Source: Escherichia coli
GTDB lineage: Bacteria; Pseudomonadota; Gammaproteobacteria; Enterobacterales; Enterobacteriaceae
DNA: 64,000 bases
NCBI RefSeq assembly: GCF_017348835.2
Contig: NZ_CP071375.1
Strand: one strand, 5' to 3'
Part shown: positions 3,120 through 7,393 of the stretch, in pieces
Numbering within the stretch: position 1 is the first letter of the stretch
How the letters are laid out: each line of letters begins with the position of its first letter
Notes under the pieces: model-generated
Seen by the model: the letters and a program-made list of their open reading frames with translations, nothing else
The model's database searches: none
Told to the model about the DNA's origin: nothing
Made by a program: the position numbers and the translations under genes

Positions 3120-3347
3120 AACCGATTAATCATAAATATGAAAAATAATTGTTGCATCACCCGCCAATGCGTGGCTTAATGCACATCAACGGTTTGACGT
3201 ACAGACCATTAAAGCAGTGTAGTAAGGCAAGTCCCTTCAAGAGTTATCGTTGATACCCCTCGTAGTGCACATTCCTTTAACGCTTCAAAATCTGTAAAGC
3301 ACGCCATATCGCCGAAAGGCACACTTAATTATTAAAGGTAATACACT
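3120..3347 (+). promoter_or_regulatory. cspA promoter (-35 TTGCAT 3152..3157, -10 CTTAAT 3175..3180) and ~159-nt 5'UTR
   Basis: Hexamers with 17-bp spacing read directly; a long leader starting near ACGGTTTGACG (3189) is the known cspA cold-shock UTR. Confidence 0.7.
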
Positions 3348-3560
3348 ATGTCCGGTAAAATGACTGGTATCGTAAAATGGTTCAACGCTGACAAAGGCTT
3401 CGGCTTCATCACTCCTGACGATGGCTCTAAAGACGTGTTCGTACACTTCTCTGCTATCCAGAACGATGGTTACAAATCTCTGGACGAAGGTCAGAAAGTG
3501 TCCTTCACCATCGAAAGCGGCGCTAAAGGCCCGGCAGCTGGTAACGTAACCAGCCTGTAA
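3348..3560 (+). CDS. cspA: Cold shock protein CspA
   Basis: 70-aa [24 protein letters not shown]… matching CspA. Confidence 0.97.
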
Positions 3561-3587
3561 TCTCTGCTTAAAAGCACAGAATCTAAG

Positions 3588-3617
3588 ATCCCTGCCATTT
3601 GGCGGGGATTTTTTTAT
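3588..3617 (+). terminator. Rho-independent terminator of cspA
   Basis: GC hairpin ATCCCTGCC/GGCGGGGAT followed by a T7 run. Confidence 0.7.
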
Positions 3618-3747
3618 TTGTTTTTCAGAAAATAAATAATCGATCGCGTAATAAAATCTAGTATTATTTTTGTGAAAAATAAATTTGGGTGCAATGAGAA
3701 TGCGCAACGCCGTAAGAAAGGCGGGAATAACTTCCCGCCGAAGACTC

Positions 3748-3900
3748 TTACTCTTTCAAATTGCAGGCTAAAAATGCCGCCAGCTCATAACTCCCCTGTT
3801 TAATATGCAATTCACACAGTGAATCTCTTATCATCCAGGTGAAAAATAAAAGCGTGAAACAAATCACTATTAAAGAAAGCAATCTATATTTCTGCGGCAT
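3748..3900 (-). CDS. hokA: Hok-family membrane toxin (type I toxin-antitoxin), intact 50-aa ORF
   Basis: Minus-strand translation from 3900 gives MPQKYRLLSLIVICFTLLFFTWMIRDSLCELHIKQGSYELAAFLACNLKE*; below the ORF-track cutoff, found manually. Confidence 0.85.
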   Translation of the reverse strand: MPQKYRLLSLIVICFTLLFFTWMIRDSLCELHIKQGSYELAAFLACNLKE

Positions 3901-3949
3901 TCCCAGCCCCCTGTGTGTGTAAGTTCACAGAGATATTGCAATTGCCTCC

Positions 3950-5100
3950 GGATAAGTAAGGGGAGATTGCACTATGCAAATGCAGCATCTGATGGTTGGC
4001 TATCCTAAGTACTACCAAACGGCCGATTATGCGTTGAGGCTTTCAGTGATGGCTGATATAGCAACAATGAGAATGAAGGCTCTGCACTTCTGGGATAAAC
4101 ACGGTATTTCTGCAGCTTCTGAAGCCTTTGGCGTGTCCTGCCGCACGCTTTACTGGTGGCGTCAGTTACTGAACAAGGAAGGACCTGAGGGGCTAATCCC
4201 GCACAGTAAGGCACCTCTGGTGCGACGAAAAAAACACTGGCATCCCGATGTGCTGAAAGAGATTCGACGCCTCAGGACAGAGCTGCCGAACCTCGGTAAA
4301 GAGCAGATTTTTGTTCGCCTGAAGCCCTGGTGCGAACAGCGCTATCTGGCCTGTCCGAGTGTTTCCACCATCGGCAGAATGATCGCTGCCGCACATGATA
4401 AAATGCGGATGATACCTGTGCGTCTGGGATCGCGGGGGAAGGCACTGCTTGTCAAAAAGCGGTCTGCCAAACCCCGCAGGCCAAAGCACTACCGCCCGGT
4501 AAAGACAGGTGAGCTCATTGGGATGGACGCCATTGAGCTCAGAATGGGCGAACTGCGTCGCTATGTCATCACCATGATCGACGAATGCAGCAATTACGCG
4601 CTGGCGCTGGCTGTGCCGTCACTCAACAGTGATATCGTCAATCACTTCTTCAGCCGCGCAGCCCGGTTGTTCCCGGTCGGTATCAGCCAGATAATCACAG
4701 ATAACGGAAAAGAGTTCCTGGGAAACTTCGACAAAACGCTGCAGGAAGCCGCTATCAAACACCTCTGGACCTATCCCTACACGCCAAAAATGAACGCTAT
4801 CTGTGAACGTTTTAACCGGACGTTAAGAGAGCAGTTTATTGAATTTAATGAGATTTTACTCTTTGAAGATCTGGCGCTATTTAACCAGAAGCTGGCGGAA
4901 TATCTGGTGCTGTATAACAGCAAAAGACCCCACAAGGCGCTCGCACTAATGACGCCCGTGGAATATATTTTAAAAGAGAATAAAAATTGCAATATGTGGT
5001 GGACCCATACAGTGTGTTGATTTCCAACGAGTAAGAGGCTAACCTTATGGTGTCTATGCATAGAGGGGCCTCACTTTGATTTATAGTCAGGTGGGGCTTT
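3950..5100 (+). mobile_element. Putative IS481-family-like insertion sequence; boundaries not resolved
   Basis: Single-ORF DDE transposase in the place K-12 carries IS150; I could not identify terminal inverted repeats by eye, so the ends are approximate. Confidence 0.3.
3974..5020 (+). CDS. DDE-type transposase/integrase (rve core; IS481-family-like)
   Basis: 348-aa ORF with N-terminal HTH-like segment and integrase core motifs (GMDAIE…ITDNGKEF…YPYTPKMNAICERFNRTLRE); true start may be a downstream Met. Confidence 0.7.
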   Translation: MQMQHLMVGYPKYYQTADYALRLSVMADIATMRMKALHFWDKHGISAASEAFGVSCRTLYWWRQLLNKEGPEGLIPHSKAPLVRRKKHWHPDVLKEIRRLRTELPNLGKEQIFVRLKPWCEQRYLACPSVSTIGRMIAAAHDKMRMIPVRLGSRGKALLVKKRSAKPRRPKHYRPVKTGELIGMDAIELRMGELRRYVITMIDECSNYALALAVPSLNSDIVNHFFSRAARLFPVGISQIITDNGKEFLGNFDKTLQEAAIKHLWTYPYTPKMNAICERFNRTLREQFIEFNEILLFEDLALFNQKLAEYLVLYNSKRPHKALALMTPVEYILKENKNCNMWWTHTVC

Positions 5101-5281
5101 TCTCTGTCTGCCTTTCGGTGAATACCTGAGACAAACAGTCTCAAGCACCTGTGGCTATTCTAGCTTAATAAGTTTGTTTCTTCTCCTTGATATTATCCTA
5201 AAAAAATCTCATAAAATTAATATATGAGATAATCTTTATTCAGCAGAAGATTATTAAAGGTTGCTGTATTATTTAGCGATA

Positions 5282-5312
5282 AAAAAAGCCTGCCAGATGG
5301 CAGGCTTTTTAA
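5282..5312 (-). terminator. Hairpin terminator downstream of glyS
   Basis: AAGCCTGCC-AGAT-GGCAGGCTT palindrome flanked by A/T runs. Confidence 0.7.
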
Positions 5313-5323
5313 TAACGGCGTTA

Positions 5324-7393
5324 TTACTGCAACAGCGAAATATCCGCAACGCGCAGGAACAGTTCGCGCAGTTTCTCCAGCATGGTCAGACGGTTGATAC
5401 GCAATTCTTTGTCATCAACCATGACCATCACTTTATCGAAGAAGGCATCGACCGGTTCACGCAGCTCTGCCAGTTCGACCAGCGCATCCTGGTAACGACC
5501 TTCCGCAAAGTACGGCTCCAGCTTGTCACGTAGCACCACAACCTGCATCGCCAGTTTAATTTCTTCCGGCTCTTTCAGAGTAGAGGCATTCACGCGATCG
5601 CTCAGCACTTCGTCAGATTTCGCCAGGATGTTAGATACACGTTTGTTCGCCGCCGCCAGTGCTGCAGCTGCTTCCAGGGTACGGAAGTGCGATACCGCTT
5701 TCATGCGGGCATCGAAATCAGCCGGACGAGTCGGACGACGCGCCAGTACCGCCTGGATGGTGTCAACGGTATAACCTTCGTCCTGATACCAGGCGCGGAA
5801 GCGACCGAGCATAAAGTCGATAACATCATCAACTACGTTGGCATTAGTCAGCTTATCGCCATACAGACGCACCGCTTCTTCGGTCAGCGTTTGCAGATCA
5901 AGGTTGAGGTTCTTCTCAACGATAATTCGCAGCACGCCAAGTGCGGCACGACGCAGCGCAAACGGGTCTTTGTCGCCTTTCGGATGCTGACCGATACCGA
6001 AGATACCCGCCAGAGTATCCATCTTATCAGCAATCGCCAGCGCACAAGCTACCGGGTTGGACGGCAGGTCATCACCGGCAAAGCGCGGCTGATACTGCTC
6101 ATTCAGCGCGACGGCTACGTCTTCCGCTTCGCCATCGTGACGCGCGTAGTGCATCCCCATAACGCCTTGGGTGTCGGTGAACTCGAAGACCATGTTGGTC
6201 ATCAGGTCACACTTAGACAGCAGGCCCGCACGGGTTGCGTGGTTAACGTCAGCGCCAATCTGTTCGGCGATCCAGCCAGCCAGCGCCTGGATGCGGTCAG
6301 TCTTGTCACGCAGCGTACCCAGCTGTTGCTGGAACAGCACGGTTTGCAGGCGCGGCAGGTTATCTTCCAGACGTTTTTTACGGTCGGTGTTGAAGAAGAA
6401 CTCGGCATCAGCCAGACGTGGACGAACGACTTTCTCGTTACCAGAGATAATTTGCTGCGGATCTTTCGATTCGATGTTGGCAACGAAGATAAAGTTCGGC
6501 AGCAGTTTGCCGTCGTTCGCATACACCGGGAAGTACTTCTGGTCACCTTTCATGGTGTAAACCAGCGCTTCAGACGGCACAGCGAGGAATTTCTCTTCAA
6601 ATTTCGCGGTCAGAACGACCGGCCACTCCACCAGCGAAGCCACTTCTTCCAGCAGGCTTTCGCTTAAGTCAGCGTTACCGCCAATCTTACGCGCTGCTTC
6701 TTCGGCATCGGCTTTAATCTTCGCCTTACGTTCTTCGTAATCGGCGATGACTTTCCCGCGCTCACGCAGAATTTCCGGATACTGATCGGCGTTATCGATG
6801 GTGAATTCCGGCTCGCCCATAAAGCGGTGGCCGCGAATCACGCGATCGGACTGAATGCCCAGAATGGTTGCCGGAATGACTTTGTCGCCCAGCAGCAGGG
6901 TCACGGTGTGCACCGGACGCACGAAGTGCACGTCGCTTGCACCCCAGCGCATCAGTTTCGGAATCGGCAGTTTCGCCAGCGAAGTCGCAACCATATTCGG
7001 CAGCAGTGCTTCAGTGCTTTCGCCCTTCACATGGGCGCGATACAGCAGCCATTCGCCTTTATCGGTAGTCAGACGCTCAGCCTGGTCAACGGTAATACCG
7101 CAACCACGCGCCCAACCTTCTGCCGCTTTGCTCGGTTTGCCTTCAGCGTCGAACGCCTGGGCAATCGCCGGGCCGCGTTTTTCGATTTCACGATCCGGTT
7201 GCGCTTCCGCCAGGTTAGCTACTTTCAGCGCCAGACGACGCGGAGCAGCAAACCATTGAACGGTGCCGTGTGCGAGGCCTGCGTTATCCAGCTCCGCAGT
7301 AAAGTTCGCAGCAAAGGACTCTGCCAGGCTGCGCAGTGCTTTTGGTGGCAGCTCTTCAGTGCCGATTTCCACCAGAAAAGTTTTCTCAGACAT
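5324..7393 (-). CDS. glyS: Glycine--tRNA ligase beta subunit
   Basis: 689-aa [23 protein letters not shown]…; adjacent to glyQ. Confidence 0.97.

Follow-up and report, generated by a model that had tools for sequence, protein, structure and literature searches.

An ISKpn28-like insertion sequence in the hokA/sokA locus of Escherichia coli, and a subfamily of IS481 elements that probably inserts at the -35 edge of sigma-70-type promoters

The IS481 family of insertion sequences (IS) has its type members, IS481 and IS1002, in Bordetella. These are elements of about 1 kb with TGT...ACA-type ends and a single DDE transposase that is made without frameshifting. The target of IS481 is a 6-bp palindrome, NCTAGN, which is itself duplicated, and it is said, from work by Stibitz in 1998, that this target also matters for how the end of the element reads. 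Here we describe an element of this family in a stretch of 64,000 nucleotides from Escherichia coli (contig NZ_CP071375.1; hereafter the window), where it lies between the toxin gene hokA and the leader of that gene. The element shares all of the above family traits, but differs from IS481 in its target: the 5 bp that it duplicates are arbitrary, and the signal (TTG...TAnnnT) is found outside the duplication and on one side only. With a probability of roughly 85%, we consider it to be an intact mobile IS481-family element in hokA/sokA and, from a comparison with about 100 other copies and relatives, its subfamily to integrate next to sigma-70-type promoters, with a 5-bp duplication that directly adjoins the -35 hexamer. 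The element alone would be a routine IS annotation whose ends have now been fixed; the point of interest is the target rule.

Insertion at a fixed distance from a promoter element, with the coding sequence spared, is known from Ty3 (Pol III starts), Ty1 (upstream of Pol III genes) and Tf1 (Pol II promoters), which may be regarded as analogues. These are retroelements, the integrases of which are tethered by known host factors, whereas the IS in the window has a fixed orientation and a tether that is only hypothesised. Among the bacterial elements, IS1397/ISKpn1 (in repetitive extragenic palindromic sequences), the IS110 family and Tn7 (attTn7) likewise spare genes by choosing a recurrent genomic signal, but they belong to other transposase families and use another signal. 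A full-text literature search, which did not cover ISfinder and TnPedia, where the trait may be recorded, yielded no description of -35-directed insertion for the IS481 family, nor any account of a bacterial safe-site element with the -35 edge of sigma-70 promoters as its target. The hok loci of E. coli K-12 reportedly carry IS150 and IS186, as Pedersen and Gerdes are said to have described in 1999; like the element in the window, these lie near, and not inside, the hok frame, and separate hok from its leader. For E. coli and K. pneumoniae, homologues of hok/sok were found near hotspots of mobile-element insertion, and adaptive disruption was suggested as the cause (Durrant et al., bioRxiv 10.1101/527788).

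Among the named elements, ISKpn28 of Klebsiella pneumoniae is the nearest relative. Like the element in the window it is 1,096 bp long, makes a 5-bp duplication, has an open reading frame (ORF) that runs out of the right end, and is found at plasmid hok genes and upstream of prophage holin genes. In the last 30 nt of the right end the two do not differ at all, and their left ends are nearly identical; over the full length they share 75.4% of their nucleotides (as measured on an annotated ISKpn28 copy, H83) and 80% of the amino acids of the transposase. By the convention of ISfinder, members of the same IS species share more than 95% of their nucleotides or 98% of their amino acids, and the element in the window would thus be a species distinct from ISKpn28. 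In RefSeq the name ISKpn28 is not applied to the E. coli element.

The complete insertion sequence was found at positions 3916..5011 (+), as defined by the empty site and by nine other copies that share exactly this interval. In the O157:H7 strain TX265-1, where the locus is uninterrupted, the BLAST alignments of the two flanks (query 1-357 on the left, query 1454-1771 on the right) overlap by 5 bp, and the empty site reads CCCCCTGTGTTGATT. Consequently, the target-site duplication consists of CTGTG at 3911..3915, as seen in the empty site, and of GTGTG at 5012..5016, as given by the overlap of the flanks, with one mismatch between the two. Perfect 5-bp duplications were found at other sites (CTGTG, CAAAG, TCTCC and CTGAA). 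The element opens with TGTGTAAGTTCAC... and closes with ...GGACCCATACA; its extreme ends are TGTGTAAG on the left and CATACA on the right, i.e. TGT...ACA termini. Alignment of both ends revealed imperfect inverted repeats of 27/28 nt, the left one (TGTGTAAGTTCACAGAGATATTGCAATT) at 3916..3943 (+), starting 58 nt upstream of the transposase ATG, and the right one (AATTGCAATATGTGGTGGACCCATACA) at 4985..5011 (+), where the same nucleotides also encode the C-terminus of the transposase (...NCNMWWTHT). The only long perfect stretch in these repeats is the 11-mer ATATTGCAATT, which is conserved in all copies and in ISKpn28. In a seed-extension search for inverted repeats (3560-5330) the true repeats surfaced only as this 11-nt perfect pair (I18), whereas the pairs that ranked higher were terminator hairpins or chance matches; the boundaries were therefore drawn from the comparative data.

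In an earlier note on this DNA, made from the letters only, no inverted repeats were seen outside the ORF, and the termini were left unresolved. Outside the ORF no such pair can indeed be found: the reading frame continues across the right inverted repeat and stops 9 nt past the element, which is why the repeats had been missed. With the ends placed at 3916 and 5011, the suspicion that the element might be truncated can be dropped, as the full 1,096 bp are 100% identical to copies in other genomes. The same applies to a possible start at a downstream Met, since the ATG at 3974 is used in all copies.

The distribution of the element is that of a mobile one. When the locus (3560-5330) was compared by megablast with 5,426 complete E. 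coli genomes, the flanks were joined in nearly all of these (i.e. the site was empty) and the insertion was found in 11. The element alone matched 1,419 genomes, in up to 38 places per genome, and 782 of the 1,927 places are located on plasmids. The copy-number check proposed in the earlier note thus came out in favour of an IS: the gene is multi-copy elsewhere and rare at this locus. Copies of at least 99% identity occur in 146 records, full-length ones of 100% identity included, and older copies (93-94% identity) are found on chromosomes and on ColV-type plasmids. A second copy is not found within the 64-kb window, and a protein-based scan of the genome contigs gave only 12 loci, mostly distant ones or ones at contig ends.

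Some of the copies elsewhere are not intact. In strain EC22 and in many other E. coli chromosomes (L002, H47-H58) a copy of about 94% identity is fixed as a pseudogene between galF and yegH, in a locus of 4.1 kb without the wca (colanic-acid) genes, and with an imperfect duplication (TTGCC/TTGCA), which points to a deletion associated with the IS or to a rearrangement of some age. In plasmid p3R-1 (L003) and in ColV-type virulence plasmids, a frameshifted copy (about 93% identity) is found between iss and iroB, without a target duplication. Truncated copies that retain nucleotides 1-670 of the element (H84-H88) adjoin a gene of the H-NS family and are annotated as 'helix-turn-helix domain-containing protein', and in a widespread protein cluster of 635 members (P0057) the helix-turn-helix (HTH) region of the transposase is fused to the H-NS domain PF00816. 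Solo fragments of the left end, 43-61 nt long and 95-100% identical, occur without an annotated feature in many E. coli chromosomes (H90-H99) and may be remnants of excision or deletion.

The transposase is encoded by one uninterrupted ORF of 348 codons (3974..5020, +), without a programmed frameshift and with an HTH region ahead of an rve-type DDE core. The ATG at 3974 is preceded by AAGGGGAG, and no in-frame stop was found inside the element between 3974 and 5011. Pfam matched the 348-residue protein to rve_3 (3e-14), rve (5e-11) and HTH_32/HTH_28/HTH_23. The catalytic core extends over 4526..4807 (+) and contains D185 (4526-4528), D243 (4700-4702) and E278 (4805-4807); the D243-E278 spacing is the classical 35 residues, and all three residues are conserved across an alignment of 77 sequences of the subfamily. 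The best NCBIfam match is IS481 (NF033577, transpos_IS481) with 221.6 bits and an E-value of 1.5e-65, which is 2.4 bits below the curated cut-off of 224, while the runner-up, IS3, reaches 98 bits. The alignment spans positions 2-283 of the 284 in the IS481 profile. These matches and the DDE triad bear out the description in the earlier note of an IS481-like single-ORF transposase with an HTH and an rve-type DDE core, and supply the IS-family match for which it had asked. The element in the window is an intact, recently mobile IS481-family IS, related to ISKpn28 and unnamed in RefSeq.

The C-terminus of the transposase depends on the insertion site. At the right end the reading frame leaves the element, adds Val-Cys, and ends at a TGA (5018-5020) beyond it, so that the last two codons and the stop are provided by the target. 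Accordingly, the length of the protein varies between sites from 348 to 573 residues (e.g. 357, 362 and 378), and at some sites the tails are fused to pieces of neighbouring genes. Since it is the target that provides the stop codon, transposases of this type are annotated with variable lengths or as 'partial'; the RefSeq flag is often 'missing C-terminus', and the product name in strain PE164 is 'integrase core domain-containing protein'. In four ISKpn28 entries (proteins P0001-P0003 and P0010; L172) the tail enters a second ISKpn28 transposase, at three different internal positions; these double proteins could represent nested or tandem partial copies, or assembly artefacts. Inspection by eye revealed no convincing pair of hexamers for a circle-junction or internal sigma-70 promoter of the transposase gene.

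The order of the genes around the insertion is chromosomal: ghrB-yiaF-yiaG-cspA-hokA-[element]-glyS-glyQ, and the region is 100% identical to that of strain PE164 over 1,771 nt. The hokA coding sequence (3748..3900, -), identified from its translation and from the RefSeq annotation of the identical PE164 locus, is intact; 15 nt separate its ATG from the element, which lies upstream. The leader of the hokA mRNA was found on the other side of the element (5012..5150, -), severed from the Shine-Dalgarno sequence and the ATG of hokA. The supporting Rfam match, to 'sok' (RF01794, 5006-5150, -), scores 104.4 bits against a gathering threshold of 59 (E-value 4e-24). Despite its name, this family represents the leader of the hok mRNA; its consensus ends at the hok ATG, and the positions of the hok Shine-Dalgarno sequence and ATG have been displaced by the element. 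As the element sits between the leader and the Shine-Dalgarno/ATG region, hokA is cut off from its promoter and leader.

Immediately to the right of the element, the putative antisense gene sokA and its promoter are intact. From the general architecture of hok/sok loci and from conservation we infer a sokA promoter at 5017..5045 (+), with the -35 hexamer TTGATT (5017-5022), a spacer of 17 nt and the -10 hexamer TAACCT (5040-5045); the stop codon TGA of the transposase lies within this -35 hexamer. The pattern TTGnnn-17-TAnnCT is conserved at the matching position in some 25 diverged hok loci. The SokA RNA itself is predicted at 5051..5118 (+), with a single-stranded 5' tail, a long hairpin and a U-tract. 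This stretch of 68 nt is antisense to the hok leader matched by Rfam and folds at -25 kcal/mol (z = -3.05). The constituents by which a hok/sok locus is recognised, i.e. a Hok toxin ORF, a conserved leader and an antisense hairpin RNA, were thus all found.

In K-12 BW25113 (L224) the hokA leader carries an IS150, inside the presumed spacer of the sok promoter Psok. A deletion of about 40 bp has there taken out the -10 hexamer and the 5' part of sokA (compare window 5017-5072). We had considered that this IS150 might occupy the very nucleotide used by the element described here, but it is located 17 bp to the right and is accompanied by the deletion. It belongs to the IS3 family, unlike the element in the window, and shares no geometry with it.

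In the first other copies that were compared, the element precedes the start codon of hokD, of a plasmid hok gene and of an ldr toxin gene by 13-15 nt, in the same orientation throughout. To describe the targets more generally, right ends of this element and of ISKpn28 were gathered by means of a 23-mer that is conserved in the right repeat; metagenome contigs contributed 120 loci and viral contigs 41, and protein-based matches were added. The 203 right ends contained 84 unique right flanks, which fell into 49 similarity clusters. Eleven clusters were left out, as their flanks form no duplication and look rearranged, and the remaining 38, in which the duplication is either confirmed or of unknown status, were analysed with one representative each. 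An exact TTG at positions +6 to +8, i.e. right after the 5-bp duplication, was found in 19 of the 38, against a background of 1.6% in the DNA of the window (p ~1e-24); without the two hok-type clusters it is still present in 17 of 36 (p ~1e-21). Fourteen of these 17 non-hok TTG clusters also have a -10 hexamer (at least 4/6 matches to TATAAT, at a spacing of 16-18 nt), a feature with a background rate of 10%, or of 25% where the DNA is AT-rich (p at most ~1e-6), and TAnnnT is found in 9 of the 17, where 2-5% would be expected. The positional profile shows T6, T7, G8, G27, T29, A30 and T34, which amounts to TTGnnn-N17-(G)nTAnnnT. Sites without the TTG still resemble promoters, such as GTGACA-17-TAGACT, ATGATA-17-TATAAT and TTTACT-17-TATAAT. 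In the left flanks, read outward, there is no comparable signal. Since the signal is found on the right flanks only, the orientation of insertion is fixed: the right end always faces the predicted promoter, and the transposase gene and that promoter point the same way.

The recognisable targets comprise Psok of hokA, hokD, plasmid hok and many diverged hok loci, and the promoter Prdl of ldr. At plasmid hok the target-site duplication TCTCC directly abuts TTGCCT. Co-oriented genes follow 40-300 nt downstream of the flanking motifs; a crude ORF scan of the downstream flanks was only weakly informative, and a few genes were recognised by eye. Sites are located 55-290 nt upstream of yehL, which is annotated as such, and of genes that we take, from their protein sequences, to be manA, sthA and an aah/tibC-like gene. 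At one site (L049) a terminator hairpin and an ORF resembling a holin gene follow downstream, and the flank presumably represents a lambdoid late promoter, given the architecture of lambda pR'. An ISKpn28 site 'upstream of the hol gene' has been mentioned before, without explanation (PMC6908951).

Two groups of sites are described separately. Cluster 2 (L025/L097/L031/L050) is another recurrent site, at which a small hydrophobic ORF (MSQKSLTAITFCVTAILI...) has its ATG directly next to the duplication, GTGCT on the toxin strand. With TTGCTC-17-TAACCT in the right flank, it is a candidate for a further type I toxin/antisense pair. In cluster 3 (L054, L090 and L146) the duplication TCTCC of the hok Shine-Dalgarno region is followed by the right flank TGTCAACGCAAAGCAG..., in which a Psok-like promoter is lacking. 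These sites may depart from the rule, or they may belong to hok variants in which the leader has been rearranged. A preference of the element for type I toxin genes as such was rejected, since the non-toxin sites share the geometry. Mimicry of the element's own ends by the target is not supported: TTGCAA is present in both repeats, but at 19-20 nt from the tip as compared to 5 nt in the target, and without a counterpart of the -10 hexamer.

In distant relatives the rule holds as well. A search with the protein brought up 939 relatives; those with 42-57% identity keep the C-terminal C(N/Q)MWWTHT and diverge beyond it. When a TTG follows the 5-bp duplication, the third codon past ...ACA must read TGN, and therefore encodes Cys, Trp or a TGA stop. 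Indeed, the third residue after ...WTHT is a stop (29) or Cys/Trp (13) in 42 of 56 cluster representatives, where 6/64 would be expected by chance (p ~1e-31). As the consensus -35 hexamer TTGACA gives the frame an immediate TGA, 348 residues is the modal length. On the DNA level, the tip ...GGAC(C/G/T)CATACA plus a gap of 5 nt was found in all nine relatives studied, the form GTGGTGGAC(C/G)CATACA being conserved in relatives of 43-56% amino acid identity, and where the left end could be found a duplication was confirmed (gagcc, caatc, cccta and agacc). The flanks include TTGAAC-17-TAATCT upstream of trxA-rho in Acidithiobacillus caldus, TTGACG-17-TATAAT upstream of xseB, TTGACG-17-TACCCT, TTGCCA-18-TATAAT, TTGACA-16-TATAAT, TTGACT-18-TAAAAA and a hok/sok-like TTGCCT...CTACAAT; two flanks are weaker (TGGACT...CAGACT and TAGGCT...TTAATT). 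Judging by these sequences, insertion at the edge of putative promoters is a trait of a large subfamily, and no quirk of enterobacterial hok loci.

How might a transposase come to do this? The statistical pattern of targeting is strong, and several mechanisms could produce it. Tentatively, and at somewhat less than even odds, we propose that promoters occupied by the RNA polymerase holoenzyme have the DNA at their upstream edge captured by the transpososome, the position of the -35 hexamer fixing the joint. Strand transfer would then take place just upstream of the -35 hexamer, at about -36 to -41. Such capture would fit the enriched bases -14G, -12T, -11A and -7T, which match the recognition by sigma-70. 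It would also fit the -35 hexamer being in a fixed register with the element while the -10 hexamer floats by +/-1, and the over-representation of promoters that are constitutive and heavily occupied (Sok, Rdl and probably phage late promoters). A direct reading of the TTG by the HTH of the transposase, with selection adding the rest, would be nearly as likely; the remaining weight goes to mixtures of the two or to something else. The candidate determinants of targeting would be the parts of the transposase that fall outside the generic IS481 profile, i.e. the N-terminal residues 1-32, which are specific to the subfamily, and the C-terminal tail with CNMWWTHT.

More speculatively, this widespread subfamily may be guided by promoter-bound sigma-70 RNA polymerase, with the beta flap, sigma region 4 or the alpha C-terminal domain as conceivable points of contact, which would make it a bacterial counterpart of Ty3/Ty1 and a natural system for inserting DNA at promoters; we regard this as a conjecture with less than an even chance of being right. 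Guided in that way, the element would find favoured landing pads in Sok and Rdl, which are constitutively occupied and where knockout of the toxin would do no harm. In general, an insertion of this type would spare the coding sequence and the core promoter and replace everything upstream of the -35 hexamer. In hok and ldr the antisense promoter is arranged back-to-back with the ribosome-binding site of the toxin, and the insertion therefore silences the toxin and keeps the antitoxin. Such a toxin-off, antitoxin-on insertion should be harmless, which is probably why the hok and ldr sites dominate the sample.

The alternative that survives best is that of an ordinary IS with a short preference (NNNNN followed by TTG or TGA), the -10 hexamer and the promoter context having arisen afterwards, since only intergenic insertions that leave genes unharmed would survive, and since copies that soon run into a stop codon (the TGA of TTGA) would retain a working transposase and multiply. 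The ORF does need an external stop, and two residues followed by a stop is the commonest tail among the distant relatives (29/56). Moreover, the information peaks at the TTG (0.7-0.9 bit, versus 0.2-0.6 bit at the -10 positions), and all data come from standing genomes. For a stop codon alone, however, the T at +6 would be needless, while it is as strong as the one at +7, and at +9 the E. coli/ISKpn28 set shows no dominance of A (A 14, C 13). Once a TTG is given, the -10 hexamer still occurs at 16-18 nt far more often than in AT-rich DNA, as described above, and both the bases enriched there and the play of +/-1 in the spacer are traits of sigma-70 promoters. In addition, near-consensus promoters are targeted in GC-rich hosts, where those arising by chance are rare. 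We therefore regard a short preference as an unlikely, yet serious, explanation of the complete pattern.

It could also be argued that the adjacency to hok reflects adaptive disruption of toxin-antitoxin loci and is not a property of the transposase. The hotspots near hok/sok reported by Durrant et al. (bioRxiv 10.1101/527788) agree with this, as do the IS150 at 17 bp in the same hokA leader of K-12, with its deletion of about 40 bp, and the expected harmlessness of insertions that kill the toxin but keep Sok. Selection for loss of the toxin may indeed play a part at hok loci, given this IS150. Yet selection cannot fix the same joint nucleotide at hokA, hokD, plasmid hok, ldr and the diverged hok loci, a nucleotide at which the IS150 of K-12 is not found. 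Neither would it give the same geometry at non-toxin promoters and, in the relatives, at trxA, xseB and others, and as an account of the target rule adaptive disruption is improbable. Finally, that the ORF would be an integrase-like gene that has been domesticated or has degenerated (whether as a truncated element or as a single-copy gene that became fixed), as one might read from the NCBIfam score just under the IS481 cut-off and the bare RefSeq name, can be dismissed, since it is absent from the locus in over 99% of E. coli, has identical copies with duplications of their own at many sites, and retains the DDE triad and both ends.

Several observations weigh against insertion at the -35 edge as the general rule. 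Between about a quarter and a half of the site clusters have no exact TTG, and some insertions are inside genes, as is seen from the long fusion proteins and from hlyA::ISKpn28 (PMC7841143). There are flanks without a matching duplication, several of them clearly rearranged (L002, L003 and L007), and the duplication in the window carries its one mismatch. Most of the distinct hok-type sites are homologous to each other and were counted as one cluster in the statistics. A simple promoter scan makes no call at Psok, the consensus of which is weak (4/6 and 3/6 matches). The flanking motifs are called promoters from consensus, conservation and the position of downstream genes, and not from mapped starts, so they should be read as putative. 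The sites are, moreover, the survivors in sequenced genomes, and selection against gene disruption adds to the pattern to some degree.

If insertion at the -35 edge is indeed the rule, there would be a mechanistic reason for the clustering of mobile elements at hok/sok that was previously read as adaptive disruption. The landing sites of elements that are common in E. coli, in Klebsiella plasmids and in prophages would become predictable, together with the genes that are uncoupled from their upstream regulators. The reading of a promoter by a DDE transposase could also be studied in the subfamily as a simple system of one protein. Should RNA polymerase prove to be the guide, this would be a first bacterial example of transposition tethered to the transcription machinery.

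Some further features were found close to the insertion. The cspA thermoregulator (Rfam RF01766, 357 bits) lies just to the left of the locus, at 3300-3615 of the window. Between the hok region and glyS (within 5249-5316) a perfect 13-bp hairpin (5283-5310) resembles STnc370, with 41 bits against a gathering threshold of 54, and is probably a bidirectional terminator. Opposite the 3' part of hokA there is an ORF of 72 nt (3700-3771, +), which is named ysaE in K-12 and 'hypothetical protein' in PE164.

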